64,000 nt of DNA from Eledone cirrhosa. Its lineage: Eukaryota. The position numbers and the translations under genes are program-made. Shown here in pieces: positions 15,065 to 57,620 of this stretch. Position 1 is the first letter of the stretch. Each line of letters starts with the position of its first letter. The notes beneath the pieces are model-generated. The model was not told the DNA's origin. It searched no databases and saw only the letters and a program-made list of their open reading frames with translations. The stretch lies in NCBI GenBank assembly GCA_964016885.1, contig OZ024740.1, positions 375,906,001-375,970,000 on the forward strand. The letters run 5' to 3'.

Positions 15065-15117
<53 letters not shown>
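15065..15117. repeat. (ATT)n tract, left boundary of the retrotransposon nest
   Basis: Directly visible. Further tracts at 19165, 21831, 27746, 31668, 32461, 32704, 38507, 44424, 50361 and 55481. Confidence 0.97.
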
Positions 15118-18100
15118 TGCGACCTACGTAGGGAATCGTATTATCGTGAGCTCCGCAAAGGTTTGTTGATTTCAGTTGTTTCAAATTGCCAGTTATGGAA
15201 AATCTTTGTTGTTAAGTGTTTATAAGTTCACATATATTGCTTTCTGAAAAGGACACCTAAAATATTGAGGCCTTGAGCCCAAATTTAAACTTTTTAATTA
15301 TCAAACAAAATATTTCTTTGAAAAAAAACATGGACGTCAAATTTACTGTTTTTAACAGGCCAACACACCCCTCCTCCACCATCATCACCACCAACACCAA
15401 CAACATTCTAAGCCATGCTACGGTTACCAACACAATGTCAAAAAGAACAATGAACACCACTAATACCACAACCACCACCACAGCGACAACAGAAACCCCC
15501 AAAAAATAAATTATTATCTCGTGACATCGAAATGGATTCACCCAGAATCGACTCTTCCACGCCGAATACCACTGACACCACCACCACCTCCACCACAACT
15601 GAAACTAAAAACAACAATAACAAAAACAGCAACAACAAGAATGAGAATAAAAGCAACAACATCAACACCACCGCAAAACAAAATGTGTCGTTTGCCAAAG
15701 CAGCGAAGAAAAGGGAAACAATCGAGGTAAGCCAGTGTGAATTAAATGAAGCCAAACGAATGGTAAAAAAAGATGGGTACATCGTCACCCCCCCCCCACA
15801 CACACCTAATACAATGGAGCATCGGCGCCTATTAACCGTGTCATATCGGACGATAAACACAAAATAACGCCGAGTGGAACGGGCATCCGAGTCCCAAATA
15901 CAAAAGGCTTTGGGACATGTGTGGGTGAAAAGACCCTCATCAGACGTGGGCAGAAATATGGAACTGTGGACGTGTTTTTTGGAACACCACAGGAAGCCAG
16001 AGCGCACGCCATGTCCCCATTAAGAAGTGACGACTTCCCACTCGTCCCAATCTATTGTGGTGAGAGACTCGGAAGAGCAAGGTGACCCACGTTCCACCGG
16101 CCATCGAAATTCCCTGGCTAATGGCTGCCTTCCTCGACGGCATCGAGGCCAACACAAAAATAATCGAAGTAACAAAAGAAAATCACCTGAACTGGCCCGG
16201 ATCTGGTATGGAGCTCCTGATCGAAGGGGACCAAAAAACATTGAGGAAATTCCAGAGGTGATAGACCTCACTGACGTCAGCCACCTCACCGTAATCGTTG
16301 AGGGTAGGAGGCCTATGTATGTCGTTTGTGGTGAAGGAACCCACCTAAAGGCTTTCTGCCCTTAGGCTAAAAAGTTGAGGCCATCTCTCTTACCTACCCC
16401 AGTGACTCAACCATCAACACTACCAGCAGAAGAAATGGCAGAAACAACTGTAGCAGCAACAACAAAAGCAACTGTAGCAGCAACAACATAGCAATAGTAA
16501 CAAAGCCAACACCACCACCAACCACCACGCGAGAACTAGCACCAGCGCCTCCACCTTCCACCACGCCATAACCCAAACCAACGCCTCTGGAGGATTTGCC
16601 ACTCCCCAACCTATCGAAACTGGAGACAGATTGTGACAACGAGGCGTGTGAAACTGTATAAGGAAAAAATAAAAAAATAAAAAGAACCCAAAAAAGAAAG
16701 AAAATCCTCTTCCTTCACCCTCCAAAAACAAAATACATGGGGAAACAAATAAACTAACAAACAAAAAAATTAGGACAGCTATGCCACCATCCATACCAGC
16801 ATCACAAACCCCATCACCATCATTAACCACAACACCATCATCACCAACACCACAAAAGTCACCAAAAAGCGAAACAGAAGCAAACCCACAGCAAACGCCA
16901 AAAGAAAACAACCAAAACGATACACACTACACAGCATTAAATTTGAACAACAACCAATTATTACACTACATGCATCACAACACCAGCATCACAGAAAAAG
17001 ACTAATACAACACCCCATAAATTCACACCACCTCCACACATACAAATCACTCGCATCACACAGAAAACGTACACGACACTAAAACAAAAATGCCCCAAGC
17101 GCATCGGATACATCCGACACTCTCCAGGAGGATTTATAAGGACAAGCTTCCGGAGGAGGCCACAAACAGTGAGAAGGATGGAAAAACATTCCCCCTACGA
17201 AAAGTGAGATAAGTGGTCGTTCCCATCTTTTTCCACTCCTTTTCAACATGACCTCACTCAGAATAGGCAGCATAAATGCACGTGGCTTGGGGTCGTCATG
17301 GAAGCAGGGTCTCCTGCTCAACCCCTCAGGTCACTAAAAATAGATGTGGTAGCTATCAGCGAGACAAGAATCTCCGTAGCATGGGCCTTCGCACCGATCT
17401 TCGGCGCCGACGATGTGTACGCATCTCCCAGCCATTCTGGATTGGCGGGAGGAGTTGCTGTGATTTTTCGGAGAGGTTTGAATCTCGCCATACGGGCCAT
17501 CTTTCTGGACCCAGAAGGTAAGTTGGTGTTGCTGTACGTGACCAGCGGAGACGGGCAAGCTTTCAGTCTAGTGGCCGTCTACGCCCCGACAGAAGCAGGG
17601 CGACCTGATTTCTTCCGGCGTCTGGAGACCTTTCTTGGAACGTCCCGCTCTTTAGTGTTAGTGGGCGACTGGAACGGGATCAAAGATGCATGTTGGTATT
17701 GTGTGGGATTAGAGGATAGGGGAGGAGGGTGCAAGAGTCTCACTAACCTGCTCAGGCATTTTGAACTGTCTGACAGGTACCGATTGGATTTCCCGAATGT
17801 GCCAATGTGGACATGGACAAACCGCATCGGGTCATGCAGATCATATCTAGATCGAGTATTTCGTAGGGAAATAGATAGGTCTAGCATAGGCTGTTCACAA
17901 TTCAAGATAGTCAGCTACAATTCAAGATAGTCAGATGTTTTGGAAGCGACGCGCTCCCATGATCAGACGATCCATCTACTGTCAACACCCGTTGCGTGGA
18001 AGACTGGGCATGCCATGGCTGATAATGCGCAAACATGCTCTGAGGCTGAGACATCTCTGATCCTTCCTTGGCGGTGAACATGCTTTGTCGCCGTCCGCCA

Positions 18101-19164
18101 GGTACGTTTTCCCACAGCTCGTCTCCTTGACGGAACTGCAGTCCTGGGTCAGGAAAAGACTGAGGGATAGCGCTTGGACACTGGAATGTCTCCAGGCGCT
18201 CACTGCCCTCCGCCAGCTGGGCACCAGTATCGGTGGAACATCCAACTCGGCGTTCCATAGAGGACACGTGGAGGGGAAGGGCGACGACGTTCTCGGGGAG
18301 ATCCCGGGCGTCGAAGAAGATCAGCTGTGCTCTCTTCTGGAGAAATTTCAGCCCAGGGCCTATGGATATCTTCCGAAAATCTCTGACCTGGCAGTGCTAC
18401 CGTGGGCGTTGCCGGTTCGAGATAAGCTCTACAGGCACGGAAGTACCATCAGCCGAGCCTGCCCGAGATGCGCGCAGAGCGACAAAACCGTCGTGCACGC
18501 ACTCGTTCAGTGCCCGAGCATTGCTGAATGGTGGAGCTATGTCGAATAGTTGCTGTCTCGTGTAGGACCGATCCGGTTATCGACTGAGTCCATAGTGCAG
18601 ATGGTCTCGCCGTCTTCCTTCGAGGAGGAAGGGCAGGCGGTTTTCATCTGCCTGGTGGTCATGGCGAAAGAGATTGTGTGGTGGACAAGGTTGAAAGGGT
18701 TAAAGACACACACTTTCTTCTTCGGCGACTCCCTAATTAACTTTTTCAAGTTTCACTTGAAGAGGAAAATTAGGGTGGAGAGGCAAGTGCTGCCTTCTAG
18801 CAAGTTTGTTGAAAGGTTGGTGAATGTAGACAGAATGGTCTGAGTGAACGGGATTGCTCTGAATATACGCTTGTAGTTTGAGGAATGGGAAATAATTGGT
18901 GGCCAAGGTGGCCGTGGTCTTTTGTGTGGTTTTTGCCACGAGTAACCCTCGGAGGTTTCACCCTATTGGGGATTTTCCATTGTTTGAATTTTCACTTTTA
19001 TTGTTAATATATATATATGTTTCTATGTCTTTTTTCTTTTTCGGTTCTTATATAAATAATAAAAATCTTTACACGCACAAAACCGACTTCATACCGTCAT
19101 GTACCGTCCTGTACCGTCTGTAATGTTTTTCTTGATGTCATCCTTTATGGCCAATAAAGAAATC
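15118..19164 (+). mobile_element. Tx1/L1-clade LINE family A, copy A1 (degenerate, RT deleted)
   Basis: 5' end gcgacctacgtagg as in A3. Broken ORF1. ORF2 endonuclease from about 17267, deletion at about 17930, C-terminal CPRC..H...C. Ends aataaagaaatc(ATT)n. Confidence 0.92.
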
Positions 19165-19179: not shown

Positions 19180-21830
19180 CTTTGAGTCGCAGTTATTGAT
19201 GTTATTTAACTGGAAAGTTTGTTGAAATGAATATCAAGCCGCTACCTGCAGACTCAGATATTCAGGACGTATCGGAGGGTCCTTGCTGTTCCCAGCAAGC
19301 ATACCTTTTGACGTGTTCCAAAAAGCGAGGCTGGACTAATCTTCTTTAACCATCCTTGGAAATTCTTTGAGATAGTACCTAGTGCGCCTATGACAATCGG
19401 GACAACCTTGACTTCATAGCAGTTCCAAATCCTTTTTATCTCCCACTTAAAGTCGTGGTATCGGCTAATTTTCTTCCTCTCCTTTTCTTGCACTCCCGTG
19501 TCAAATGGGCAGGCTACATCTGCAATCAGGCACGATTTTTTTTCCTTGTCCAAAACCACCAGGTCATGCGTATTGTGTTCTAATTTTATGATCGTTTTCT
19601 ATCACCGACTCTGGCTTATGCTCATGCCACTTCTCAGAATGTGGTAAATTTAATTTGCATAGATGTCAGTGGATCACCCTGCCTATCACATCATATCTCC
19701 AGCCTTTATAGTGAGTCTGATCTAGGTGTTTACACTCAGATACAATGTGAGCCATAGACTCCTCTCTCTCTCTCCACGGATCCTACACAGTGGGCTAGCA
19801 TCCTCCTTGTAAATATGGTGTTTCACCCACTTCGTTCTGAGGCCCTGCTCTTGCGCAGCCATTAGCATTCCTTCTGTAGCCTTTATTAAGGTATCCCCTT
19901 TTTAACCATTTCGATGTCTGTGGATCTATAAATTCAGTTTTCTTAAGGAGGTACTATGAAGCGATTTTTCATGAAGGTTGCTCTTCCTCCTTGTTGTTAT
20001 TTCCTCCTTGTACTTCCCCTGGTCTATTGTCTTCTCCTTCACTACAATTTTGAGCATTGGCTCCCTAGTGTCAGTCACGTTTTGTTGTTTTTCTCCATCT
20101 GAACACAGTCCTCTATGCTGATAAAACCTCTTCCACCTTCAGATCTCTTTAAGTATAGTCTATCGACATCACTCCTCTTGTGGAACATGTTGTAGATAGT
20201 CAATAGCTTCCTAGTCTTCCTATCCATTTCTTTTTGTTCAGCAACACTCCATTTCAGAATTCCCGCACTGTACATAATAATAGAGACAACTCGGAAATCC
20301 ACTGCACCTATGACATTCCTACTATTTAGATGTGATTTTAATACGCTCCTTACTCTCTTAATGTACTCAGATCTTATCAATTCCTTCATTTTTTTTGTTC
20401 TTGATGTCATCTGCCTCCAGAACACCTAAATATTTGTATCCTTCTTCAGTGTTAATTTCCTTTATCATCTCACCTGTTGGTTCCTGGATTCCGTTGCCTC
20501 TGCTCAATTTACCCCTCTTCATCACTAGGACTCCGCACTTATTAATACAAAATTCCATACATATATCATTGCTGAAAATACGGACAGTGTCAATAAGTAC
20601 ATCCAACTCTTCTCACTCTTCCTAAAGAGTTTAAGATCCTCCATGAAGAGGAGGTGGTTGATGGTAGGCTCTCTTTTTCCCAACTGGTATCCTGATTTCA
20701 CTTTTCGCAATATAACTGTCAGGGTATCAGGGCAAGGACAAACAGCAGAGTGGACAAGCCATCTCCCTGGAAGATACCTCTCTTGATCTTCACGCCTCCC
20801 AAGGATTCTCCACCCGATGTTAACTCTGTTTCCCAGGACTTCATACTTTTGCTCAACAACTGTCTGATGTTATCTGCCACCTTGACGATCTCTAGGCTTT
20901 TGGTTATCCAAGAATGAGGTACCATGTCGAATGCCTTTTGGTAATCTATCCATCCAATGGCAAGACCAGTGTGTCTCCTCCTGCAATTCCTCATTACCAT
21001 CTTATCAATAAGTAACTGGTATTTTGTACCACGTGACTTCTTTCGGTATCCTTTCTGTTCGTCCGGTAACAAGTTGTTTATGTGGAGGTGATGGTAGATT
21101 TCCTCAGACACAATGCTTGTTAACAGTTTCCACATTACGGACAGACATGTGATAGGTCTATAGTTGGTAACATCATTACCATTGATTCGGTCTTTCATCA
21201 CCAGAACTGTGGTACCTTTTGTCAATCACTCTGGTACCTCACCCGACATCAGGCAGTCATTGAACATGGTTGTCAGTTTCGGGTGGAGGGATGTTATATA
21301 TTTAATCCAATACCCCTGCACACCATCTGGGCCTGGTGATTTTCAATTTGTTGGTTTTTTTGAGAGTTTCAACTGTGATACTCAAATCAGTTTGTTGGTG
21401 TGCTTGTTCACTATCTCCTTTTGTATTGTCTCAATCCACACTGCCTGACTATTATGTTTAACATCCTGCTCCCATATTCCTCTGCAGGATGTCTTAGTCT
21501 GTTCCGCCCCAGGGATCAATTCGTTGCCTCTTTCTTTCCCTTCAAGCTGTCCAAAGAACCTTTGGTGTTGTCAAACATGCGGTTCTGTCTATACTGACTG
21601 AATTCTGCTCTCATACCGCCTAATATTTGCACTTTTTGATACAATACGTTGCTTCAGTTCCTCTATGATAATATTTAGCTTGTTCCCCCTAGTTTTGTAC
21701 TTTATTTCCAATCTATTTTTAGTGTCGATGTTTTGTAATGTCCCGTTCAGTAGGGTCTCATGCTTAGCAATGTCGTTTCTCATTCCTTGATTTTACCATT
21801 CAGTCGTTTCTTCCACAAATGTTCTGATCT
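19180..21830 (-). mobile_element. R4/Dong-clade RLE non-LTR retrotransposon, copy R1 (5'-truncated, degenerate)
   Basis: NYRPITCL, WIDYQKAFD, RGIFQGD, INHLLFMEDLKL, YKYLGV, GGRG, DVACPFD..E..K..RY, VPIVIGALG. Flanked by TAA repeats on its sense strand. Confidence 0.9.
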
Positions 21831-21858
21831 TTATTATTATTATTATTAGTTGTTATTT

Positions 21859-24800
21859 GGCCGCACATGTGTGAAGACAGACAAGTCTGCGAGGGAAAAG
21901 GTCCGTAGTTTTAAGCTGTTTTAAAGTGTCATTAACGAAACTTAAGGTACACATCTTGATTTAAAGAGAGGGATACCTCTCAATATTCGGGCTTTAAGCC
22001 CGAATATTCAGATTTATTTTTTAAAAACTTCGAAAAAAATCGCTTCCCCTCCAAAAGAAAATTATGGAAATTTTCGACCTTGAAACGGTAAACAACGTTC
22101 AGGTCAAAAGTTTAAAGGCAGCCACTGCAGATTTCACCACGACTACGACGGCTACAGTCATGCCTGTCATCCACTCGACTGAATGTGAAGGCAAAACTAA
22201 AAAGCTACCATTACAACCTTCTGCCATAGCAGCAGTATCATCTGAAAACGACATCACCACCACCGCCACCACCACCACCACCACAACAACAACTCAGAGC
22301 AATAACGACAATAACACCGATAGCTTCAATGCAAACAAGGATGGCGGTGGCAACAGCAAGAATGACAACAACAACAATAAGAGCATCAGAAACAGCACAT
22401 TTGCTGCAGCAGCAGCAATAACAAAGCGCTTATTGAATATTGATATTGATATTAGCAATAAAGACGAACAGTTGGCCAAAGCGTGGAGGCTAATTAAACG
22501 GGAGAAGTCCTGGGCAAACCTGACCATCCCGGACGAGGCAACAGCGGCCATGCAAAGGAGGACGGTGCTCTTTCGATGTATTTTGGTGCAGACACGAAAA
22601 GTGGAACTTGCGAGTCAAGCAGAGGTAGAGGCTGCTTTGGAGTACATCGGAAGTAACATAGAGTACAAAGCAAGGGGCAAACAGTTCGGTACCATCTCGG
22701 TACTGTTCAAAACCGAGGCCCTCGCTATTAAGCACACGGTGACCCCCTGCAGAACGGAACGCATTATCATGCATCCGTCCTATATGGGTAAAGGGACAGT
22801 GAAGGTACGCATTCCCAGCATCCCACCAGGAATGAACATATGGTGGCTGCTGAGATGCGTAATCGAGGAGGGGACAGACACCACCCTCTGGACATCAAAA
22901 GGACAGAGAGAGAGGACTGGTCCGGAATGGATTTGGAGATTCTTCTCCAAATGAAACCGGAAGATATGAATAACATCCCAGATTTTTCCCGCCTGCAGGA
23001 TGGGACAACAATCCAACTAATGATTGACGGAAGAAGGCCACGCTGCTTCGTTTGCGGGGAAGCAACGCATCTTCAAGCCTTCTGCCCTCAGCGCAAAAAT
23101 GCAGGGGGTCGCAAACCTCCTTGTTGCCAACGCCAGTGTCAGCACCGAAAGCTGTACCACCACCACCACCAAAAACAACATCAACAAAAACACGGACACC
23201 AACACTAAAAGCAACCGGATCACCATCAACACCAAAACCAATCCAAGGAGAAAACGAGGAAAGCTCTCCCACTCCCCCCCCCCCCAATTATACACATAGA
23301 CAAAAAAAAAAATAAACGCACACACAGACACAGAGACACTCACAGACACAGACCCTTTGTCTTCCAGCAGCGAAGATGAACGAAAACCCAAAAGTGCAAA
23401 AAAAAAACAGAGAAAACTCACAAAAAAAAAAGCCCCAACAAAACAAAAAAACACACACAACAAAAAATACAGACACCACTAACGCAAACACTTCCCCAAT
23501 AACATGAGCACCATCAGCAACATCGACACCACCTCCACAATCCCCGAAACGCAAACAACCTAAACAAACACAAGTACAAATAAACACACAAATACCTGAA
23601 ATTGCAGACACCACACCTACAACAAACATAGACATACCCGAAACAACACCACCAAAATCATCGCCACCACCTTCACCAAAACGAAAACAAATAAAACCAC
23701 ACCAACAAAATGTTAAAAACTTCGTGCTTGTCAGAAGGGCCAATGGTAAACTGATGGCCCTCTTAGCGCGAAGCGAGGACGTTCAAACAGAGGGGGAGAT
23801 TTTTGAAATGAGCACATTTTGCGTGCCAGAATATTTGCTTCTGGTCCGAACGTCACTCTATTCCTTCAAAGAAATTCGAGAGAGCTTTCCTCAAGACGTG
23901 GGAAACCCGAATGTGAAACCCACATCAAGACTTTTAAAGGGCTTCCCAAAAGAAAACCCACCAACCATGGAGGTCGTACCACCCGACCTTCACAAGACCC
24001 GGGAGGTAAGTAAACCTTCCCTCTCTCTCTCTTAGCTTACTAATATGGCCATATTAAGAGTAGAAAGTTTAAATGTTCGCGGCCTGGGTCCACCCTGGAA
24101 GCAGGGTCGCCTGCTCAACGACCTCGGGTCGCTGGGAATGGATGTGATTGCCGTAAGCGAGACCATAATTTCCGACACGCGCGCACTAGCCCCCATTTTC
24201 GACGACTATCAGATCTTTGCATGTGTTAGCAGGCCGGGAATGGGGGCGGGGTGGCAGTGCTGTTTAGGAAAGGACTGGATCTCGAGGTAAGGTCGATCTC
24301 CCGGGACCCGGACGGTAAGTTGGTGGTCGTGGATGTGAGCAGTAGCGAAGGTGGGGCCTTTAGACTGCTGGCCGTCTATGCTCCTACAGGGGCCGGATGA
24401 TCTGACTTCTTTAGGCGCCTGGAGACCTTTCTGGGTACGTCTCGCCCTTTACTGTTAGTGTGGGACTGGAATGGCATCTTAGACGCACGCTGGGATTGTG
24501 TGGGAGTAGCCGATAGGAGCTGGGGGTGCAAAAGCCTCAAGCACCTACTCAGCCAGTTCCAACTGTCTGACAGGTATCGACTAGATTTCCCCAATGTGCC
24601 AGTATGGACATGGACCAACCGAATGGGGTCATCTAGATCGTATATAGACAGAATCTTCATTAGGAAAATAGATAGAAATAGTGTGGGCTGTCCACTTTTT
24701 AAAACGGTCGCCTATTCCGATCACAAATTTGTGATCTGTACGGTCGACCTAAATAAAACGCGTAGGTTAGGACCGGGTTACTGGAAGCTGAACATGTCAT

Positions 24801-27745
24801 TTCCGGCACGTAAGGCTTACAGGGTCCGAGTCAACAAGTTAGTTAAGCAAACGTTGACAGGGGGGATCATCAACAACAGATGTTGGGGGGTTCTCAAAAG
24901 AGAGATTAGAGTAACTTCGATAGAGTTCAGCAAAGAACTAGCGTTAGAGAAAAATAGAAAGGAGGGGGAGCTGGTAGATAAGTTAGATGAGGCTATTTGT
25001 AGTGGCATCGCAACTGACGTGCTAGCGGCGAGAATGGCATTAGACCATTTCTTCAATGCCAAACACGAAGGTTGCATTGTCAGAGCTAAGGCGCGTGCGC
25101 TGAGAAACGAGGGAACTAAAGCTGTTCGATGGGCCCGCGTGGCGGAGGCGCAGCGTTGTAAATAAAACCACAATTCGGTCTTTGGCGACCAAGACGGACA
25201 CGAGATAAGCGATTCCAAGCGGATGTGTGAGGCCTTTCGCCAGCACTTTGCTCGGTTGTTCAGGGAGAGTGGCGAGTCAGAGAGAGTAGCGGATTTCAGT
25301 CCCTACCTTGACGGCTTGCCGCACATCTCAACGGTCGACGCTGAGCGCTGCGAAAGGCCGATTACTTCAGCCGAAATTCAAGACGCCCTTGTCGACTGCA
25401 TGAGGTGCAAGTCACCCGGTTTCGATGGCCTGCCCTACGAGCTTTACGTAAATATTCCAGACTTGTTCTCCGAACTCCTCGAAGCACTCTACTGTAACTG
25501 GCAGCAGAATGGGAGTATTCCCAGTTCTGTGAGCATGGGAGTGGTGACGCTGATAAGGAAAGACGAGAACAAGAGGGATACATTAGACAACTTCAGGCCC
25601 ATAACTCTGCTCAACACAGAGTTTAAGATTTTGGCCAAGGTGTTAGCAAAGAGATTGGCGCTTGTCGTCGAGGATTTGGTTGGGGAGGCACAGACTTGCG
25701 CAATCCCAGCCAGGTCCATACACGAGAATCTCCACCTCATGCGATAGATGATAGAGAGGGTGGGGTGTAAACTTAGCTTCGGTGGGGCACTGATCAATTT
25801 AGATAAATCGAAAGCATTCGATAGGGTCGACCACCGGTATGTGGAGTTTGTCCTCAAAGCAGCTGGCTTCGGCCCTGTCTTTAGAAGCTGGATCGTTGCA
25901 ATGCACAGCGGAACACGCTCGGTGGTCAAGGTTAATGGCCACCTCTCGGAACCATTTCGGATCTCCCGATCGGTCCGTCAAGGGTGCCCTCTCTCTTCCC
26001 TTCTGTACGTATTGACTCTCGAGCCTTTACTGCGGACGCTGGAGCTGTTGCAGGGAATCCCGCTCGAACCGGGACGTGGAAAGGCGGTGTCGGCTTATGC
26101 GGACGACATCAACGTGATGGTGTCGAACACCTCAGAAATCGAGGTGGTCGGCACCTTATTGAAGGAATATTAAAGGTTGACAGGAGCCAAACTTAACCCG
26201 GAAAAGTCGGTGGGCTTGCAGCTCGGAACCTGGAGAGGAAAGCCCATGCCGTCCAACAGCGTGGTGGGGCGCTGGACGGACGGACCAGTAAAGTTGCTCG
26301 TGGTTTGGTTCGGACCAGACCTCCAGGTGGAAAAGAATTGGGACGAGGTAACGAGCAGAGTAGCCAGTCTCACCCAAAAATGGGGTGGGAGGAATCTATC
26401 ACTGAAAGGTCGCGCGGAGGTGGCGAATTCGTACATCGCGTCCGTCATCTACTATCGCTTAACCGTCGTGCCTTGCCCCCGTCCGCGCCTCGTCAAGTTG
26501 GAACGGCTCCTCTTCAAATTCTTGTGGAGGGGACAAGTTCCGTTGGCGAGGTGGTCCATCTGCTGCCAGCACCCTCTACGCGGAGGGCTGGGCATGCCGT
26601 GGCTAATGATGCGCAGACATACGTTGAAGCTCCGGCATCTCCAGATATTCTGCCTCAATGGTGAACAGGTGTGGTCGCCTTTTATCAGACGGGCCTTTCC
26701 GTAGCTCATTTCTTTGACTGAGCTGCAGTCCTGGGTCAAGAAGAGACCGATACTGGGTGACTGGCACCTGGAATGTTGCCAGGCACTCACTGCCCTCTAC
26801 CAAGCGGGCAATGCGATCAGTGGAACTTCCACTCTCGAGTTCTATAGAGGATTAGTGGTGGGCAAGTGCGATGACGCACTCGGAGAAGCTTTGGGCCTCG
26901 ACGAAGTCGAACTGACCAGTCTGTACCGGAGGACTTTTGAGCCGGGGACGATGGACAATTTGCAGAAATCCCTCGCTTGACAGTGCTACCGGGGGGGCAC
27001 TGCTGGTTCGGGATAAACTCTACAGGCACGGAAGTGCTGTCAGACGGACCTGCCCAAGATGCGCACAGAACGACGAAACCGTTCTGCACGCACTTGTCCA
27101 ATGTCCCTGCATTACTGACTTGTGGAGTTATGTCGAACAGCTACTGTCGCGTGTGGAACGAATCCGGCAATCGGCCGAGTCCATAGTGAAGATCGAGCCG
27201 CCACCTTCCTTAGGTCAGGAAGAGCAGGACATTTTCCTCTGTCTGGTGGCAGTTGCGAAAGAGATTATATGGTGGACCAGGTTGAAAGGACTAAAGACAG
27301 ACACTTTTCTCTTCGGCCAATCCCTCATCAATTTCTTCAAGTTTCACCTGGTAAGGAGGGTGAGGGTGGACAGAGAAGTGCTGCCCCCCACTACATTTGC
27401 TAAAAGGTGGGTGAATGTGGCGAGAATGGCTCGTGTGAATGGGCCTACTCTGACCATGCGCCTATAGGCTGGCTAACTTGAGTAGAGGGGTGCTCTCCTG
27501 GGTGCCCTAGAAGCGCAGTGTGGTTCAGGATTGGTGGGGTACCCGAATCCCCCCAGGGTCGTCCACCCCCTATCGGGGAATTTATTTTGTTATATTTATG
27601 CATAGTTTATTTTATATTTTTATATTTTCATTGTTAAATTAGTCTTGCCATTGTGCACTTTTACTCAACCTTATTGTAAACCCCCACTGTCCCTGTCTTT
27701 GTATTGTCCCCTACATGTCGGCCCTTGTGGCTAATAAATGAAATC
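21859..27745 (+). mobile_element. Tx1/L1-clade LINE family B, copy B1 (full length, degenerate)
   Basis: ORF1 from 22064 with CFVCGEATHLQAFC knuckle. ORF2 24045-27467 with LNVRG, SDH, GYWKLN, AFDRVDH, RQGCPLS, YADD and CCHC, broken by stops and frameshifts. Ends aataaatgaaatc(ATT)n. Confidence 0.92.
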
Positions 27746-31667: not shown

Positions 31668-31707
<40 letters not shown>

Positions 31708-44423: not shown

Positions 44424-44428
44424 ATTAC

Positions 44429-44462
<34 letters not shown>

Positions 44463-46663: not shown

Positions 46664-46697
46664 GTGGTCTTTCCCATCTTTTCCACTCCTTTTCAAC

Positions 46698-49600
46698 ATG
46701 ACCTCACTCAGAATAGGCAGCATAAATGCGCGTGGCTTGGGGTCGTCATGGAAGCAGGGCCACCTGCTCAACGACCTCAGGTCACTAAACATAGATGTAG
46801 TGGCCATCAGCGAGACCAGAATCTCCGAAGCACAAGCTTTCGCACCGATCTTCGGCGGCTACGATGTGTACGCATCTCCCAGCCGTCCGGGATCGGGGGG
46901 AGGAGTTGCTGTGCTTTTTCGGAGAGGTTTGGATCTTGCCATACGGGCCATCTTCCTGGACCCAGAAGGTAAGTTGGTGGTGCTGGACGTGACCAGCGGA
47001 GACGGGCAAGCTTTCAGGTTAGTGGCCGTCTATGCCCCGACAGGAGCAGGGCGGCCTGATTTCTTCCGGCGTCTGGAGACCTTTCTTGGAACGTCCCGCT
47101 CTTTAGTGTTAGTGGGCGACTGGAACGGGATCTTAGATGCACGCTGGGATTGTGTGGGATTAGTGGATAGGGAAGGAGGGTGCAAGAGTCTCACCAACCT
47201 GCTCAGACGTTTTGAACTGTCTGACAGGTACCGAATGGATTTCCCGAATGTACCAATGTGGACTTGGACAAATCGCATAGGGTCATCCAGATCATATCTA
47301 GATAGAGTATTTTGTAGGGAAATAGATAGGTCTAGCATAGGCTGTCCACAATTCAAGATAGTCAGCTACACGGACCACAAATTCGTGATCTGTGTGCTTG
47401 ACTTAGATAGGCTTCATAGACAAGGACCCGGCTACTGGAAGCTAAACGCGTCCTTACCAGCGCGCAAGGCCTACAGAGACCGGATTAGCGAACTAGTTAA
47501 GCGGGCGTTGACGGGGGCCATCGTCAACAACAAGTGGTGGTTTGCTCTGGAAAGAGCAATTAGAATAGAGTTCATTAGGTTTAGTAAGACTTTAGCAATA
47601 GAGATAAATAGAGCAGAGGGAGAATTAGTTAGAAAATTAGATGAGGCGCTTAGCAAAGGCATCGAGACCGACGTACTTGCGGCGAAATTGGCCCTTGACC
47701 AATTCTTCAATGCAAAGCACGAAGGCTGCGTTGTCAGAGCTAGGGTGCGTGCTCTCAGACACAAGGGGACGAAAGCCGTTGAATGGGCCCGAGTGGCGGA
47801 GGCGCGTCGTGGCAACAAAGCCACGATCCGGTCTTTGGTGGACCACGACGGGCGCATGCTACTCGATCCCGGGCAAATGTGTGAAGCTTTTCAGCGACAC
47901 TTCGCTCAACTGTTCGAGGGCAGTGGCGGGCCGGATCGAGGGATGGACTTTAGTGTCTACCTCGACGGACTGCCGCGGCTTTCGGCCACTGAGGCGGAGT
48001 GTTGCGAAAAGCCGATAACAACCGCTGAAGTACGGGATGCAATGACTAGTTGCACAAGGGGCAAATCGCCTGGTTTGGATGGTCTGCCCTATGAACTTTA
48101 CGTACAAATGCCAAACTTGTTCGGAGGCCTCTTGGCGGACGTCTACTGCAACTGGCAACAGAACGGGAGAATTCCCAGCTCTGTGAGCCGAGCAGCGGTG
48201 GCGCTGCTGAGAAAGGATCCGAACAAGGGGGATAACATAGATAATTTTAGGCCCATAACTCTGCTAAACACAGAGTTCAAGATTTTGGCCAAGGTGCTAG
48301 CAAAGAGGTTGGCGCTTGTCGTTGGTGGTCTGGTGGGAGAGGCACAGACATGCGCCATTCCCGACAGATCCATCCACGACAACCTCCACCTCATGCGATA
48401 CATCGTAGAGAGGGTAGCTAGGGAACCTGGCACGGGTGGGTCTTTGATCAATTTAGATCAGTCGAAAGCCTTCGATAGGGTCGACCATCGTTACCTAGCG
48501 CTAGTCCTGAGGGCGGCTGGCTTTGGGCCCGTCTTCAGAGGCTGGATCGCTGCCATGCACAGCGACATCTGCTCTGTAGTGAGAGTGAACGGTCACCTTT
48601 CGGAACCGTTCAACATCATGCGCTCGGTCCGCCAAGGATGTCCCCTCTCGTCCCTATTGTACGTATTGACTCTCGAGCCATTACTGCACAAACTGGAGAC
48701 GTTGAGGGGGGTCCCGCGCGAACTAGGATTCGGAAGATCCGTGTCAGCATATGCCGACGATGTCACCGTAGTGGTGTCGAACGCCAAACACATCGAGGCG
48801 ATCGGCACTACACTAAGAGAATACGAAGCGGTGACAGGAGCAATGATCAACCAGGAAAAGTCAGTGGGCCTGCAGCTCGGCACCTGGAGAGGCAGGTCCA
48901 TGCCGTCCAACAGCGTCGTCGGGCGCTGGACGGACGGACCGGTTAAATTGCTAGGGGTCTGGTTCGGTCCAGACCTCCAGACGGACAAAAACTGGGACGA
49001 GGTGACGAGCAGGGTGGCTTCTCTCACCCAGAAATGGGCCGAGAGGAAGCTATCCCTAAAAGGTCGAGCGGAGGTGGCGAATGCGTACATCGCATCCGTC
49101 ATCTACTACCGCCTGACCGTCGTACCTTGTCCTAAGCCCCGCCTGACTGCGCTGGAGCGTTTGCTCTTTCGCTTCTTGTGGAAGGGACGCGCTCCGATGG
49201 TCAGGCGGTCCATCTGCTGTCAACACCCGCTACGTGGAGGGCTGGGCATGCCGTGGCTGATGATGCGCAGACACGCGCTCAGGCTACCACATCTCCACCT
49301 CTTCCTCGACGGTGATCAGGTGTGGTCGCCGTTTGCAAGACACGTTGTTCCCCAGCTCGTCTCCTTGACGGAGCTGCAGTCCTGGGTCAAGCGAAGACCG
49401 AGAGGGAGCGCTTGGAGACTGGAATGTCTTCAGGCGCTCACAGCCCTCGACCAATCGGGCAATGTGATCGGTGGAAACTCCACCTTGGCGTTCTATAGGG
49501 GATTAGTGGAGGGGAAGAGCGACCACGTACTTGGAGAAACTCTAGGCGTCGACGAAAATCAACTAGCCAATCTCTTCGGAAGGACTTTCGGGCCGGGGCC

Positions 49601-50117
49601 TATGGACAACTTCCAGAAATCCCTGGCCTGGCAGTGCTACCGAGGAGCTTTGCCAGTTCGGGATAAACTCTACAGGCATGGAGGTGCCGTCAGCTGGGCA
49701 TGTCCGAGATGCGCGCAGGGCGACGAAACCGTCCTGCACGCACTCGTCCAGTGTCCGAGCATTGCTGACTTGTGGGTTTATGTCGAACACCTGCTGTCAC
49801 GTGTAGGACCTATCCAGCTATCAGCTGGGTCCATCGTGAGGATTGCCCCGCCCCCTTCCTTTAGCCTGGAAGGGCAGGCAGTTTTTATCTGTCTGGTGGC
49901 CATGGCGAAAGAGATAGTATGGTGGACACGTTTGAAAGGGCTGAAGACGAGCACTTACCTCTTCGGTGATGCCCTGATTAACTTTTTCAAATTTCATTTG
50001 AAAAGGAAAATCAGGGTAGAGAGGGAAGTGCTCTCTTCCCAGCATTTTGTTGAAAGATGGGTGAGAGAAGCAAGTATGGCCCGAATGAATGGGCCTTCTC
50101 TGAGTATGTGTCTGTAA
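46698..50117 (+). CDS. ORF2p: APE endonuclease - reverse transcriptase - CCHC
   Basis: INARG, SET, VYAP, GDWN, YLDR, TDH, GYWKLN, KSPGLDG, NFRPITLLN, LDQSKAFDRVDH, RQGCPLS, YADD, CPRCAQGDETVLHALVQC. Confidence 0.97.
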   Translation: MTSLRIGSINARGLGSSWKQGHLLNDLRSLNIDVVAISETRISEAQAFAPIFGGYDVYASPSRPGSGGGVAVLFRRGLDLAIRAIFLDPEGKLVVLDVTSGDGQAFRLVAVYAPTGAGRPDFFRRLETFLGTSRSLVLVGDWNGILDARWDCVGLVDREGGCKSLTNLLRRFELSDRYRMDFPNVPMWTWTNRIGSSRSYLDRVFCREIDRSSIGCPQFKIVSYTDHKFVICVLDLDRLHRQGPGYWKLNASLPARKAYRDRISELVKRALTGAIVNNKWWFALERAIRIEFIRFSKTLAIEINRAEGELVRKLDEALSKGIETDVLAAKLALDQFFNAKHEGCVVRARVRALRHKGTKAVEWARVAEARRGNKATIRSLVDHDGRMLLDPGQMCEAFQRHFAQLFEGSGGPDRGMDFSVYLDGLPRLSATEAECCEKPITTAEVRDAMTSCTRGKSPGLDGLPYELYVQMPNLFGGLLADVYCNWQQNGRIPSSVSRAAVALLRKDPNKGDNIDNFRPITLLNTEFKILAKVLAKRLALVVGGLVGEAQTCAIPDRSIHDNLHLMRYIVERVAREPGTGGSLINLDQSKAFDRVDHRYLALVLRAAGFGPVFRGWIAAMHSDICSVVRVNGHLSEPFNIMRSVRQGCPLSSLLYVLTLEPLLHKLETLRGVPRELGFGRSVSAYADDVTVVVSNAKHIEAIGTTLREYEAVTGAMINQEKSVGLQLGTWRGRSMPSNSVVGRWTDGPVKLLGVWFGPDLQTDKNWDEVTSRVASLTQKWAERKLSLKGRAEVANAYIASVIYYRLTVVPCPKPRLTALERLLFRFLWKGRAPMVRRSICCQHPLRGGLGMPWLMMRRHALRLPHLHLFLDGDQVWSPFARHVVPQLVSLTELQSWVKRRPRGSAWRLECLQALTALDQSGNVIGGNSTLAFYRGLVEGKSDHVLGETLGVDENQLANLFGRTFGPGPMDNFQKSLAWQCYRGALPVRDKLYRHGGAVSWACPRCAQGDETVLHALVQCPSIADLWVYVEHLLSRVGPIQLSAGSIVRIAPPPSFSLEGQAVFICLVAMAKEIVWWTRLKGLKTSTYLFGDALINFFKFHLKRKIRVEREVLSSQHFVERWVREASMARMNGPSLSMCL

Positions 50118-50365
50118 ATTAAAGGTGGAAAACTGGGAGAGGGCACTTGCCCTGGTGGTCAGGGCCACTGTGGTCTTTTAATGGGCTTTCTCCACAAATG
50201 TCCCTTGGAAGTCTCCCCCCTATTGGGGAATTTTTCTTTGTTATTTTATTTCAACCTCTGTTTTTTCACACGCAGAAATGCCCATTTGTACCGTCCTGTA
50301 TTGTCCTGTACTGTCCTTAATGTCTACTTTATGTGAACCCTTGTGGTTAATAAAGAAAACATTAC

Positions 50366-50425
<60 letters not shown>

Positions 50426-50466
50426 GCACTGGGTAATTGCTGGCCTTGTGCTAAAAGTAGACACAA
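50426..50466 (+). mobile_element. SINE 3'-terminal fragment in (ATT)n
   Basis: cactgggtaattgctggccttgtgctaaaagtagacacaa matches 32663-32704. Confidence 0.8.
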
Positions 50467-50473: not shown

Positions 50474-53400
50474 ACGCTCATGTATGAAGACCTTACACGT
50501 CTGCGGGAGAAAAGGTTCGAATTTGAAGCTGTTTTAAAGTATCATTTTTTTGTATTTTCTTGTCGATAACGAAGCATCAGGTACCCACCTTGGTTCCAAG
50601 AGGGGGCATACTTCTCAATATTCGGGCTTTAAGCCCCAATATTACGATTTATTTTTAAAAACTTCGAAAAAATCGTTCCTTCGTCCCAAAATGTGGAAAT
50701 TTCCGACTTTGAAACGTTAAGCAACGTACAGGTCAAATGGTAAAAAACAGCGACTATTACTACCACAGACATGTCTGTCGTCCACTACACTGAATGCAAA
50801 AACTAAAGACAAGAACTGCCAACACTGCTGCTACTATCACAGAAGGGGGCGGTTAACAACACGGTATCACTTGCAACCGACATCACCACCAACACCGCCA
50901 CCATCACCACCACAACAACAACCAAGAAAAACAACGACATAACACCAAACTGCCTCAATATAAACACTAATAATAGTAAGAACAGCAACAACAAACAAAA
51001 CAACAACAACAACAACACCAACAACAACAACAGCAAGAATGACAACACTAACAACAAGAGCAACAATGAAAACAACAAACTCAACGGCTGCAGCCAAAAT
51101 AAGGCGCTTCTATAATGTAGATATCAGCTATAAGGAACCACAGTTGGCTCAGGCATGGAGGTTAATTAAACGCGACAAGTCCCGAGCCAACTTAACCGTC
51201 CCGTACGAGGGAATAGAAGCCATGCAAAGGAGGACGGTGTACTTTCAATGCATTTCAGTGCGGACACGAAAACTGGAACTCGCTAGCCAGGCAGAAGTCG
51301 AGGCTGCTTTGAAGTGTAACGGGAGTGACATTGAGTACAAAGCAAAGGCCAAGCAGTTCGGTACCATCTCAGTACTGTTCAAAACTGAGTCCCTTGCTAT
51401 TAAGCACTCCGTGAACCCCTGCTGGGCGGAACGCATTATCATTCACCCGTCCTACAAAAGGACAGTAAAGATCTGCATTCCGAGAATCCCACCAGGAAAA
51501 TGGTGGCTCCTGGGATGCGTAATCGAGGAGGGAAAAGACACTACTTCCCTAGATACCAAAAAGATGGAGAGAGAGAGGACCACACCTACAACAAACACAG
51601 ACACTTCCGAAACAACACCATCAAAACCATCACCACCACAGTCACCGAAACGAAACCAAATAAAACCAAACCAACAAAACATTAAACACTTCGTGCTTGT
51701 CAGAAGGGCCAACGATAAATTGATGGCCCTCTTAGCACGAAGCGAGGACACTGAAACAGAAGGGGGGATCTTTGAATTGAGCACATTTTGCGTGCCAGAA
51801 GATTTGATTCTGGTGCGAATGTCGCTCGATTCCTACAAAGAAATTCAAGAGAGCTTTCCTCAGGACGTGGGAACCCCGAACGTGAAACCCACATCGAGAC
51901 TTTTAAAGGGGTTCCAAAAAGAAACCCCACCAACATTGGATGTCGAACCACCACCTGACCTTTACAAGACTCCGGAGGATAAGAAAACCTTCCATCTCTA
52001 TTCTAGCTTGTCAACATGGCCATATTAAGAGTAGAAAGTTTAAATGTTCGTGGCCTGAGGTCACCCTGGAAGCAAGTTCGATTGCTCAACGACCTCAGGT
52101 TTCTGCAAATGGATGTGCTTGCCGTCAGCGAGACCAGGATTTCCTACGCGGTCGCACTAGCGCCCATTTTCGACGACTATCAGATCTTCGCATCTGTTAG
52201 CAAGCCGGGAATTGGAGGCGGGATAGCAGTACTGTTTAGAAAAGGCATGGATCTCGAGGTAAGGCCGATCTTTCGGCACCCGGATGGTACGTTGGGGGTC
52301 CTGGATGTGAGCAATAGCGAATGTGGTGTCTTTAACAATAGTGAACGTGGTATCTTTAGACTGCTGGCTGTATACGCCCCTACCGGGGCCGGACGACCGG
52401 ACTTCTTTAGACACCTGAAAGCCTTTCTGGGTACGTCTCGCCCTTTAGTGTTAGTGGGGGACGGGAACGGCATCTTTGACGCACGCTGGAATTATGTGGG
52501 AGTAACTGATAGGAACGCGGGGGGGCAAAAACATCTAATCAGCCAGTTCCAACTGTCTTACAGGTACCGATTAGATTTCCCCAATGCGCCATTCTTTACG
52601 GGGACCAACAGCATAGGGTCATCTTGGTCGTATATAGACAGGATCTTCATTAGGAAAATAGACAGAAATAGTGTAGGCTGCCCACATTTTAAAACGGTCG
52701 CCTATTCAGATCACAAATGTGTGATCTGTATAGTCGACCTAGATAAACGCGTAGGTTAGGACCGGTTACAGCAATCTGAAGATGCCATTTTCGGCACGTC
52801 AACAACAGATATTGGAGGGGGGCGTTCACAAAAGAAAGATTAGAGTAACTTCGATAGGGTTTAGCAATGAAGTAGCGTTAGAGAAAAATAGAAATGAGGG
52901 GGAGCTGGTAGATAAGTTAGACAAGGCTATTTGTAGTGGCATTGCAACGGACGTATAGCGGCATTAGACCATTTTTTCAATGCGAAACACGAAGGTTGTC
53001 AGAGTTAAGGCGCGTGCTCTGAGAAACGAGGGAACCAAAGCTGTTCGATGGACCCGCGTGGCGGAGAGGGAACGTGGTAATAAAACCACAATTCGGTCTT
53101 TGGTGGAATGAGACGGACACGAGATAAACGATTCCAAGCGGATGTGTGAGGCATTTCGCCAGCACTTTGCTCGGTTGTTCGGGGAGAATGGCGGATCAGA
53201 GACAGTAGCAGACTCCAGTCCCTACCATGACGGCTAAACGCGCATCTCGATGTTGAGCGCTGCGCAAGGCCGATTATTTCAGCCGAAATTCACGGCGCCC
53301 TTGTCAGCTGCACGAGGCACAAATCACCGGGTTTTAATGGCCTGCCGTACAAACTTTACGTAAATATGTCAGACTTGTTCTCCGATCTCCTCGAAGCGCT

Positions 53401-55480
53401 CTACTGCAACTGACAGCAAAATGAGAGTATACCCAGTTCTGTGGGAAGGGGAGTGGTAAGGGTGATAGGGAATCACGAGAACAAGAGGAATACATTAGAC
53501 AACTTCAAGCCGTCGAGGATTTTGTTGGAGAGGTGCAAAAACGCGCAATCCCAACCAGATCCATACATGACAACCGTCACCTTATGCGATACATCATAGA
53601 GAGGGTAGGGTGTAAATCTGTCTTCGGTTGGGCACTTATCAATTTAGATCAATCGAAAGCATTCGATAGGGTCGCCCATCGGTATGTGGAGGCTGTCTTC
53701 AAAGCAGCTGGCTTCGGCCCTGTCTACATGAGCTGGATAGCTGCAATGCACAGCTGCATCTGCTTGGTGGTCAAGGTTAATGGCCACCTCTCGGAACCGT
53801 TTCGGGTCTCCCGATCGGTCCGTCAAGGATGCCTTCTATCTTCCCTTCTGTACGTATTGACCCTCGACCCTTTACTGCGGAAGCTGGAGCTCTTGCAGGG
53901 CATCCCGCTCGAACCGGGACGCGGAAAGGCTGTGTCGGCTTATGCAGACGACATCACCGTGATGGTGTCGGACATCTCGGAAATCAAGGTGGTCGGCACC
54001 TTAATGAAGGAATATGAAAGGTTTACACGAGCCAAACTTAACCCGGAAAGGGTGGTGGGATTGCAGCTCGGCACCTGGCTGGATACGACGGACGGACCGG
54101 AAAAGTGCTCGGGTTTGGTTTGGACCAGACCTCCAGGTGGAAAGAGAATTCGGACGTGGTAACGAACAGGTTAGCCAGTCTCACCCAAAAATGGGCTACA
54201 ATGAAGCTATCAGTGATAGGTCGTGCGGAGGTGTCGAAGGCGTACATTGCGTCCGTCATCTACTACCGCCTGAACATCGCGCCTTTCCCCGGTCTGCGCC
54301 TTGCCAATTTCGAATGGCTCCTCTTCAAATACTTGTGGAGAGGACAAGTCCCGTTGTTGAGGCGGTCTATCTGCTGCCAGCACCCTCTACGCGGAGGGCT
54401 GGGCATGTCGTGGCTAATGATGCGCGGAGGCTGCGACATCTCCAGATTTTCTGCCTAAAGGATGAACAGATGTGGTCGCCGTTTATCAGAGGGACCTTTC
54501 CGCAGCTCATTTCTTGGACTGAGCTGAAGTCCAGGGTCAAGAAGAGACCAAGACTGGGTGACTGGCACCTGGAATGTTGCCAGGAACTTACTGCCCTCTA
54601 CCAAGAGGGCAATGCGATCAGTGGAACTCCCACTCTCGAGTTCTATAGATGATTAGTGGTGGGCAAGTGCGATGACACACTCGTAGAAGCTTTGGGCCTC
54701 GACGAAGTCAAACTGACCAGTCTGTTCCGGAGAGCTTTCGAGCCGGGACGATGGATAATTTCCAGAAATCCCTCGCTTGGCACTGCTACCAGGGGGCACT
54801 CTACAGGCAGAGAAGTGCTGTCAGACGGACCTCCCCGAGATGCGCACAGAGCGACGTAACCGTTCTGCACGCACTTGTTCAATGTCCGTGCATTTCTGAC
54901 CTGTGGAGTTATGTCGAACCGCTATTGTTGTGTGTTGAACGGGTATCGGCCGAGTCCATAGTTAAGATCGACCCATTGCTTTCGTTTGGCCAGGAAGGGC
55001 AGGCAATTTTTCTCTGTCTGGTGGCAGTTCCGAAAGAGGTTGTATGGTGGACCAGATTGAAAGGACTGAAGACAGACAATCCCTCATCAACTTCTTCAAG
55101 TTTCACCTGGAAAGGAAGGTGAGGCTGGAGAGTGAAGTGCTGCGCCCAGTGCATTTGCTAAAATGTGGTTGAATGTGGCGAGAATGGGCCGTGTGATTGG
55201 GCCTATAGGCTGGCTAATTTGAGGAGGAGAGGGGTGCTCTAGAAGTGCAGGGTGGTTCAGGATTGGTGGGGTACCTGAGTCACCCCTGAATCGCCCCCCC
55301 CCCTATTGGGGAATTTATGTTGTTATATTTATGCATAGTTTATTTTATATATTTTTATATCTTCATTGTTATATTAGTCTTGCCATTGTGCACTTTTACT
55401 CGAGCTTATTGTAAAACCGCACTGCACTTGTCTTTGTATTGTCCCTTACATTTCGGCCCATGTGGCCAATGAATGAAATC
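50474..55480 (+). mobile_element. Tx1/L1-clade LINE family B, copy B3 (degenerate, ORF1 deletion)
   Basis: 5' UTR and 3' UTR resemble B1. ORF2 from 52016 is fragmented, with YADD in ORF 53533. Ends aatgaatgaaatc(ATT)n. Confidence 0.92.
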
Positions 55481-55498
55481 ATTATTATTATTGTTATT

Positions 55499-57620
55499 GC
55501 TACCTCAGGATGTCGTCAAGTATAACTTTACTACGTAAAGTTTGTTTATGTTCACTTGTTTGCATAAACTTCATTGTTAAAATATTAGATAGAAAATGTT
55601 AATTGGGCGGCAGGCATTTCATTTTACGCCTACAAGTGTGTAAAAATGGCGCTGAGACACTCCTCCTCTCCTATCTAGTTGTCAGGTGACAGCGATTCGC
55701 ATACGAGTATAAAGCTCGACAAAGACGTCACCACCTCCACCACAACAAACATGAGTACCAATAGTGACAGAATCACAACCACGAGCACCTCCAACAACAA
55801 CTACATAAAAGCACCTCATCAAAAAGAAGCATTGAGATAAATAAGAATAGTGACAGCATTGACAAAAACAGCAGCAACAACGCCAACAGGAACAGCAAAA
55901 TAAACGTAGACATATAAACCAAGTATGGTCACAGTTTACATTTGGAGAGAGATCACCCACCTGCGGAATTCGCCCCCGTATCCCAGATCCCAAAATGCAT
56001 ATCCTCTGAGACAAGGAATCAGTCTTTGTCGACGTACTTTTCAAAATCCCAGGTGAAATCAGACGTTAATTATTCACTGTGGAGCGAAGAGCTACATCTG
56101 CTGCCGAAGTATTGTAGCCAAAGTTTAGTGAAGATAAGAGTGAACCACACAATAGCTATTTCGTGGCTAGTGGAAGCTATCCTTATAGATGTTTTAATAG
56201 CAAGCAAATACTAGGCACGAAGAAAATTAAACTGAAAGACTTGTCAGGATCAATGATGGAACTACTGATCCAAACTAATCAGGAAATTATTGAACTCATA
56301 CTTGAGATAATAGACTATGTGAACGGCACTCACCTCCCCGTGACCGTTGACGGTAGATGGCCAAGATGCCACAAGTATGGTTCAAAAATGCACCTGAAGG
56401 TATTCTGCCTTCAATAAACATGCCCCTCTCCGAACATGGATTATAGCCTTGGGAGGAGTGGCACATTGACAATAACAAAAACATAAAGAAACAATAGAGA
56501 ATTGCTCCATGAAAAAAATCCTTCGAAACATCACAAACATAGGACACAACGCCAACACCAACTACCATCAACACCACTAGACCCTCATATGGAACAACAA
56601 AAACAACAAAAACGCAAGCCAAACGAAAACACAATCACCACACATTAAACAGCTATGAGAACAAACAATCAGAAATTAATGAAAACACTACAATTGCAGA
56701 AAATTATTGCATCACCCCGAATACTATTACACTACCCACCATACATCAAATCATATATATCACACATGAAACATACACTAAATTAAAAGGAGAATGTCTC
56801 AATGCAATTGGGGACATTCGGGCCAGGTTATCCAAGCAGATATATTTCTTTGTGGTGGAGATCATCATCCCTCGCTCTACAGGAACAGAATCACCTTTTC
56901 TCACTTTTCCTTCTCACTATCTAACATGGCCTTATTCAGAATAAGCAATTGACGTGCTTATGGGTATATTTTTCTCGATGTATTTCTCAAAACAATGCAC
57001 GAAGGCTGCGTTAACAAAGCTAGGGCGTGTGTGGGCAGAGCGGAAGAATTCCCAGTTCTATGAGCCGCAGAGAGATGGCACTCGTGAGAAAGACTCGAAC
57101 AAGGGGGAATAAATATGCAGATTTTACGTCCATAATTCTGCAAAATGCAGAGTTAAATATTTGAACAAGGTATACACAACGAAGTCAGCCCTTGTCGCCA
57201 GTGGTGTGGTACGGAGTGCAAAAATGCACCATCCCGAAGAGGTTCATGCGCAACAACCTTTGCCCTATGCAACATATAATGAAACTAGAACGTGTAGGGG
57301 TCTAATTCATGTATACAAATCGAAAGCTTTCGATAGGGTGGACCATTGCTACGGTTTCGGTCCCGTTTGCAGAGATTAGCTCACAGCGAAATCTGCTGCG
57401 TGGTTAGTGTAAATATTTACCTGGACAGAGAGATCAGTTAATATTTTAAGGGTCTAGTTTGATCCAAAGTTCCAGATGGATAGAAACCAGGCCCTGGTAA
57501 CGAGTAGACTAGCATGTCTTACACAGAAATGGGCCAAACAGAATCTAAGCCTTAAAGCATGGACCGAGCTGGCAAGCACATACACCATATCCGTTATCTA
57601 CTAGCAGTTCAGTTCTGTCT
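55499..57620 (+). mobile_element. Old, heavily deleted Tx1-clade relic (copy D)
   Basis: GTHLPVTVDGRWPRCHKYGSKMHLKVFC (ORF1 knuckle), HEGCV.KAR, SKAFDRVDH..GFGPV, LTQKWA..NLSLK. Confidence 0.75.

Follow-up and report, generated by a model that had tools for sequence, protein, structure and literature searches.

Tx1-type and Dong/R4-type LINEs on opposite strands of an ATT/AAT repeat: a 43-kb retroelement array in Eledone cirrhosa

How does a single genomic site come to be filled from end to end with retroelements which touch one another only at a trinucleotide repeat? The question is raised by a stretch of 64,000 nucleotides of the Eledone cirrhosa genome (assembly GCA_964016885.1, contig OZ024740.1, positions 375,906,001 to 375,970,000, forward strand; the whole stretch is called the window). 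A sequence-only reading had recognized twelve elements in it: seven long interspersed nuclear elements (LINEs) with an apurinic/apyrimidinic-type endonuclease (APE), three LINEs with a restriction-like endonuclease (RLE) and two pieces of a short interspersed nuclear element (SINE). We conclude that the array was probably built by successive events of target-primed reverse transcription, which used a single (ATT/AAT)n tract and the duplicated descendants of this tract. The APE-type elements are referred to as Tx1-type rather than Tx1, because homologue searches returned no named Tx1 reference; the clade names Tx1 and Dong/R4 are based on architecture and target and not on a tree containing named references.

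The element map, obtained with tblastn and with BLAST of the window against itself and against natural copies at other loci, confirmed the twelve elements in the orientations first described (Table 1). All seven APE-type LINEs (A1 to A3, B1 to B3 and C) and the SINE pieces lie on the plus strand, and the three RLE-type LINEs (R1 to R3, from two families) on the minus strand. ATT tracts form 12 of the 12 junctions between 15065 and 55498, as had been claimed, the shortest being that of about 2.7 units between the SINE piece and B3. The plus strand of the window contains (ATT)≥4 in 15 places and (AAT)≥4 nowhere. Within the window we encountered no nested insertion, so that the statement that no element sits inside the body of another holds there. 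The extent given first, 15065 to 57620 or about 42 kb, had to be corrected: the array is real, but the right end of the old copy C lies near 57950. Next to it, with no clear tract in between, comes an old SINE-like piece, and the array of 13 pieces ends at about 58132, which makes about 43 kb (boundaries from C onward were read by eye). The copies are at most 90% alike to each other. Their identity to the nearest fetched relative ranges from 99.8% (A3) to about 76% (C, for which no close relative was fetched), with no gradient along the array. This mixed divergence matches the expectation for separate insertions over time, and judged from its sequence the array consists of LINE copies which were inserted one by one and differ in age.

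The association with the repeat extends to the whole genome. Exact matches to the 5′ end of family A numbered 566, and a shorter core preceded by TATTATT was found 593 times; the two patterns are not nested and the totals therefore yield no fraction. Among 95 full-length A copies on C1 (the first exact A 5′ ends listed there, in the part of C1 which both pattern lists cover), an ATT tract lay 5′ in 95 of 95, with TATTATT directly upstream in 91 and an imperfect tract in four. The 30 best, young A copies were all preceded by (ATT)6-19. Family B showed (ATT)3 within 32 nt in 28 of 29 copies and (AAT)3 in none of the 29. For family R, (AAT)3 was present within 60 nt in 26 of 29 copies, (ATT)3 in none, and the other three lay in AAG-containing tracts. 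As a control for carry-over of the repeat from the RNA, copies were fetched by their 3′ ends (20 of the 39 non-self matches per family). At the 5′ junction all 20 R copies, 16 truncated ones included, showed (AAT)n (two read from a flipped map). Since truncated R copies also have AAT at this junction, the tract is the target and not carried over from the RNA. The 20 A-type copies were chosen from among those for which full length had not been established beforehand; 17 of them reached a 5′ end and were preceded by an ATT tract. Tabulated in this way, the flanks and orientations of genomic copies bore out the target specificity of both LINE types across the genome, with the two types on opposite strands: several Tx1-type families have ATT in the sense direction on both sides, and two Dong/R4-type families have AAT.

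The locus is not exceptional in kind. Ten A copies, every tenth place of the 566-match list, were read by eye over 40 kb; two were solo and eight lay in arrays of approximately 5, 13, 17, 18, 20, 21, 26-28 and 31 kb, so that arrays of 13-31 kb are common. The 43-kb array exceeds all ten sampled loci yet is of the same kind, a long example of a genome-wide habit. Gaps below 15 kb occurred five times among the 95 positions on C1, compared with 0.4 expected. In a control of 35 evenly spaced 10-kb stretches (350 kb), Tx1-type LINEs covered 23.2 kb, R elements 6.4 kb and the SINE 5.2 kb. Three pairs of loci lie 24-600 kb apart with identical flanks (L024/L025, L064/L066, L113/L114); these are local segmental duplications which include the elements.

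These observations can be combined into one mechanism, in which the priming strands follow from established target-primed reverse transcription. The Tx1-type APE would cut between T and a purine in the (AAT)n strand and prime from the nick, probably aided by pairing with the AUU-ending RNA. A second nick some 12-20 nt away would duplicate the target, and slippage would then lengthen both copies. The RLE elements would nick the (ATT)n strand and prime from there. Because a tract would be left on both sides of each insertion, a site once occupied would present more new target than before and expand. The arrays would later be remodeled as segments between tracts are deleted, inverted or duplicated. 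The earlier claim that an insertion leaves target on both sides is supported by A3, where the variant ATTACT opens the tract on either side and is present in none of 85 other Tx1-type tails, and by the duplications around SINE copies. The strict strand partition that had been proposed is indeed seen; it follows automatically from the fixed priming polarity of each family, is not a separate phenomenon and provides no evidence of niche splitting.

The SINE (4191 genome candidates in a first-look count) takes a different position. It had been assumed to target (ATT)n tracts, which was not borne out: only three of 29 copies were located in (ATT)3, others occur within R and A bodies at further loci (L121, X169, X189, X197), and the SINE is thus not specific for such tracts. 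Duplications of at least 12 nt were found in 21 of 29 copies and in 18 of 830 shuffled pairs. They span 12-20 bp and lie at ATTAT motifs; 19 of the 21 inspected begin with ATTAT and 18 of 21 are preceded by C or T, a pattern that would locate the initial nick on the AAT strand, at a T/purine step. The SINE and the Tx1-type 3′ ends have in common a stem-loop (4 bp in the stem, 5 nt in the loop) that lies 12-13 nt upstream of the tail. Pairing is kept in 26 of 28 cells, three of four pairs are altered on both sides, and the covariation score was reached by one of 500 shuffles, in a comparison made with Tx1-type 3′ ends only among the LINE clades of the genome. We regard this putative link between SINE and LINE as a lead. 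The Tx1-type machinery likely inserts the SINE at short ATTAT motifs, and the SINE likely seeds new ATT tracts. Motifs resembling A and B boxes were read by eye, there was no Rfam match for a tRNA head, and the SINE resembles octopus SINEs.

Several points weigh against our account or limit the support for it. A3 is the sole informative case of target duplication by a LINE, and none was found for R elements. No empty or shorter allele, which would document descent from one ancestral tract, was seen when sequence runs X1, X4, X6 and X8 were compared with 54000-60500; for the other organisms the unique flank lay outside the contigs. Three of the 20 A copies of the carry-over control are truncated and lack a tract at the 5′ junction (L223, L232, L237), two of them joining an R body; we read these, tentatively, as results of later deletion. 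Among Tx1-type ends, no more than eight were both truncated and adjoined by an ATT tract. The tally that supports the strand rule, over 139 partly overlapping loci (1.28 Mb), gave ATT at 193 of 193 Tx1-type and 58 of 58 SINE ends and AAT at 188 of 191 R ends, the exceptions being rearranged copies in L159 and L028, but it takes only ends within 30 nt of a tract, includes 3′ tails which are possibly self-made and counts some loci that overlap. Growth at occupied sites is supported by a LINE directly upstream of 26 of 30 young A copies, compared with one, read by eye, on the upstream side of seven of 19 control tracts of at least six units (either side: nine of 19; Fisher's p = 5e-4 for 26/30 against 7/19), but this control is small and not matched for tract length. 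The SINE is far less tract-specific than the LINE supposed to move it, and the stem-loop test comprised seven related sequences, from which the structure itself had been chosen.

Of the other explanations, the one that survives best places the specificity in the pairing of RNA and DNA: a nick of loose specificity would lead to insertion only if the DNA end that it releases, (AAT)n or (ATT)n, can pair with the element's own RNA, which ends in the repeat. The arrays would look the same, with another determinant behind them. In each family, tail and target consist of one and the same repeat; for the SINE a match of only about 5 nt suffices, while full-length A copies always lie in tracts of six or more units, and annealing of the RNA to the target was proposed for SART1 (PMC7265360). 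The same publication reports that specificity between SART1 and TRAS1 was changed by swaps of the endonuclease, and the C or T before most SINE duplications (18 of 21) lies outside the pairing region. Pairing and endonuclease specificity are not mutually exclusive; that mainly pairing sets the target appears to us possible, though unlikely.

Recombination or slippage between tracts, through unequal exchange and tandem duplication, could also account for most of the growth of arrays, with insertion only seeding them. A repeated segment of an A fragment plus an R fragment in L242, a repeated truncated R with a mixed (AAT)(ATT) junction in L159 and reversals of polarity within the bodies of elements (X161, L205) favor such a process; together with tractless joins in L121, L232 and L237, they document that deletions, inversions and segment duplications also shape arrays. 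In this window, recombination as the main cause is refuted by elements which are at most 90% alike and of mixed ages, and the neighbors of an element vary from locus to locus. As a general explanation of array growth we consider it improbable.

Passive accumulation, in which insertion is widespread and copies survive only in repeat-filled neutral places, could add to the clustering and agrees with the enrichment of young copies beside older ones, yet it is very improbable, as it cannot yield base-precise abutment to tracts and fixed polarity in 95 of 95 and 20 of 20 copies, solo copies in unique DNA included. A misassembly joining repeat copies at microsatellites would also preserve the strand rule, and the contigs aligned to the array covered its right end only. 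It is hardly credible, given that junction tracts measure only 8-90 bp, the B1, R2 and SINE copies of the window have no 100% match other than themselves, ATTACT stands on both sides of A3, an architecture of this kind recurs at dozens of loci, the contigs concerned measuring 24-443 Mb, and one contig of run X1 (which may be the assembly's own sample) matches 55508-60500 without difference.

Table 1. Elements and selected tracts of the array, in window coordinates and from left to right.
Feature	Position	Strand
(ATT)17 tract, left edge of array	15065..15117	+
A1, Tx1-type LINE, both ends present, ~1.8 kb internal ORF2 deletion, decayed	15118..19164	+
R1, RLE (Dong/R4-type) LINE, 5′-truncated, decayed	19180..21832	-
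B1, Tx1-type LINE of family B, full length, frameshifted	21858..27745	+
R2, RLE (Dong/R4-type) LINE, both ends, three internal deletions relative to natural copy in L144	27797..31667	-
R3, 3′ 760 bp of second RLE family	31707..32465	-
SINE, full length, ~190 bp, A-/B-box-like motifs (by eye), 3′ stem-loop	32514..32703	+
A2, Tx1-type LINE of family A, full length, frameshifted	32793..38506	+
B2, Tx1-type LINE with own 5′ region, full length, frameshifted	38522..44423	+
ATTACT(ATT)11 tract, left copy of variant-marked target	44424..44462	+
A3, youngest copy, both frames open	44463..50360	+
ATTACT(ATT)19 tract, right copy of variant-marked target	50361..50423	+
SINE 3′ 42 bp, 5′-truncated	50424..50465	+
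B3, Tx1-type LINE of family B, older, internal deletion	50474..55480	+
C, old Tx1-type LINE, heavily deleted, right end approximate	55499..57950	+
Old SINE-like piece, beyond the range of the sequence-only reading, boundaries by eye	57960..58120	+
(ATT)4 tract, probable right edge of array	58121..58132	+

A3 has two intact open reading frames (ORFs). ORF1 (approximately 44672-46663) contains a CCHC knuckle with the pattern CX2CX4HX4C and a possibly RRM-like region; it had no Pfam match above the cutoff, and its look-alikes in the Atlas (zf-CCHC and ZCCHC3-RBD, at 0.88-0.93) serve as leads only. A separate ORF1 with RRM-like domains and a CCHC knuckle is a feature of the Tx1 clade. ORF2 (frame 46659-50117) comprises APE, reverse transcriptase and zf-RVT domains (Pfam: Exo_endo_phos 8.7e-14, RVT_1 3.9e-28, zf-RVT 7.7e-08). 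The nearest solved structure is LINE-1 ORF2p (E 2e-53, compared with 1e-20 for an R2 protein), and an ORF2 fragment is 66% identical to a predicted protein of Octopus sinensis over 5% of its length. The A3 sequence has partial matches in sequence runs from many other organisms; a metagenome scan found no related loci.

At least six 5′ types of Tx1-type elements have the ATT target in common. One further family combines an A-type ORF2 (94-97% from A3 position 2154 on) with another 5′ untranslated region (UTR) and ORF1 (X165 and X181 [L165-L168, L181-L184], L124, L144-L146, L157, L233, L234), which the sequence comparison presents as a swap of the ORF1 module. In the Tx1-type 3′ ends an AATAAA signal lies 6-7 nt upstream of the ATT tract (19150-19164, 27731-27745, 38492-38506, 44409-44423, 50346-50360); transcripts would therefore be cleaved inside the flanking repeat. 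In one tail (L134:7394-7460, oriented) the final 9 nt of the Tx1-type 3′ end are repeated twice among ATT runs. That 17 of 20 young A-type copies are complete at the 5′ end, compared with 5′ truncation in 16 of 20 young R copies, is unusual for an element of the L1 group.

The R elements have one ORF with reverse transcriptase, a C-terminal CCHC motif and PD..D..K motifs, as read in the sequence; the Pfam search gave no APE family, and there was no named R4/Dong reference among the homologues. Intact relatives carry ORFs of 1216 aa (L155) and 1140 aa (L142), and the solved relatives of the 1216-aa protein in the PDB are R2 proteins only. R3 belongs to a second R family, with 39% amino acid identity to the window element R2 and L155 as its intact relative. 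The window element R2 is full length: the segment 30831-31667, tried as the reversed 5′ end of a Tx1-type element which would break the strand rule, was rejected as such and is the R family's own 5′ region. The layout of this region (31100-31667, minus strand) resembles the Tx1 type, with about 230 nt, a hairpin, an A-run before ATGGCT and then low complexity. BLAST against Tx1-type 5′ regions gave short low-complexity matches only and no significant similarity; capture from a Tx1-type family is possible. Between the two R families the 5′ region is about 94% identical over 390 nt (L144:1490-1900 and L155:1490-1900, oriented, and window 31267-31662), compared with 39% in the compared stretch of protein, which suggests, as far as sequence goes, that the 5′ UTR was recently swapped between them. 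The 5′ region of the R3 family contains a relic of the SINE 3′ end (L150, L152, L153, L155, L160); this SINE-like end was considered as a sign of a different partner LINE, and this was rejected in favor of the relic. An HDV-like ribozyme at the R 5′ end gave no Rfam match, and a home-made descriptor, run without positive control, found none. The first 10-20 nt of R are briefly repeated at its 5′ junction in some copies (L032, L043, L047, L004), which suggests template jumps during second-strand joining.

There was no Rfam match in 14000-59000. Outside the array, the window contains a perfect 315-bp inverted repeat (7243-7557 and 7733-8047, spacer 175 bp) flanked by long (TA)n tracts, possibly a TA-targeting miniature inverted-repeat transposable element or a local fold-back, and a 209-codon open frame (63258-63887, plus strand) without Pfam match, possibly a decayed Penelope-like fragment.

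TRAS and SART are LINEs of the R1 clade. In the (TTAGG)n repeats of Bombyx they offer a precedent for two LINE families inserting in opposite directions into one simple repeat (PMC7265360); both are APE-type and telomeric, whereas here APE and RLE elements meet at interstitial tracts. Parallel arrival of both enzyme types at one target is known for Keno (Tx1, APE) and Utopia (RLE) in U2 snRNA genes (PMC4640811), which use the same 3′ flank of a low-copy gene and not, as here, the two opposite strands of a microsatellite that is dispersed through a single genome. Microsatellite-targeting LINEs include Dong at TAA, with an element from a snail, Kibi at TC and Koshi at TTC (PMC3812793). Dong of Bombyx mori, DongAg and DongBg (Biomphalaria) are, like R, RLE-type LINEs with a single ORF in TAA repeats and with TAA in the sense direction at the 5′ junction (PMC3812793, PMC3774820), and an HDV-like ribozyme was shown for B. 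mori Dong (PMC3774820). Unlike Dong, R consists of two divergent families with one 5′ region in common, gave no detected HDV-like ribozyme and is arrayed together with APE LINEs. Kibi, Koshi and the TTCC/TTTC Tx1 families of crocodilians resemble A and B as APE-type, microsatellite-specific elements of the L1 group (PMC4494074, PMC3812793). The targets listed for them, TC, TTC, TTCC and TTTC, do not include ATT, on which at least six 5′ types are found here; the main text of PMC4494074 has no whole word TAA, AAT or TTA and no word beginning with ATT. Crocodilian SINEU is, like the SINE described here, probably moved by a Tx1 element (Tx1-Mar), and its tandem insertions sandwich a duplicated target (PMC4494074). 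The target of SINEU is a DNA transposon, whereas here the SINE is looser than the LINE and has the 3′ stem-loop in common with it. In O. vulgaris, 1129 recent Dong-R4 and 421 L1-Tx1 insertions and unexplained hotspots of transposable elements were reported (PMC13282606); the same two clades were recently active there, and the available text contains no analysis of target sites, orientation or arrays. The available text of PMC8967140, PMC9115989, PMC4824008 and PMC3747384 does not describe targeting.

Of the proposed convergence of two endonuclease types on opposite strands, the genome-wide target specificity of both LINE types is supported, and the endonucleases themselves may read the repeat. 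Convergence of APE and RLE elements on one site and opposite orientations on one repeat each have a published precedent. No account of ATT-specific Tx1-type LINEs or of mixed Tx1/Dong arrays was found in the literature searched, although family reports in Repbase or Dfam may already note the ATT target; every ingredient has a precedent, and the combination and its scale were not found in that literature. More tentatively, and with somewhat more doubt than confidence, a three-party system that shapes a large share of the genome may be envisaged: a Tx1-moved SINE would seed ATT tracts, a radiation of ATT-specific Tx1-type LINEs and two Dong-type families would colonize their opposite strands while renewing the target, and the resulting arrays of 10-45 kb would hold several percent of the DNA (8.5% in the 350-kb control), explain the hotspots of octopus transposable elements and host swaps of 5′ modules.

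Since every ingredient has a precedent, nothing is overturned by these findings. An abundant SINE gains a candidate partner among the LINEs. The young and still intact APE and RLE enzymes, each for one of the two strands of a single repeat, form a clean pair for the question of endonuclease versus RNA-DNA pairing. Target regeneration at a single trinucleotide repeat offers a simple and testable explanation of the LINE hotspots in an animal genome of 3 Gb.

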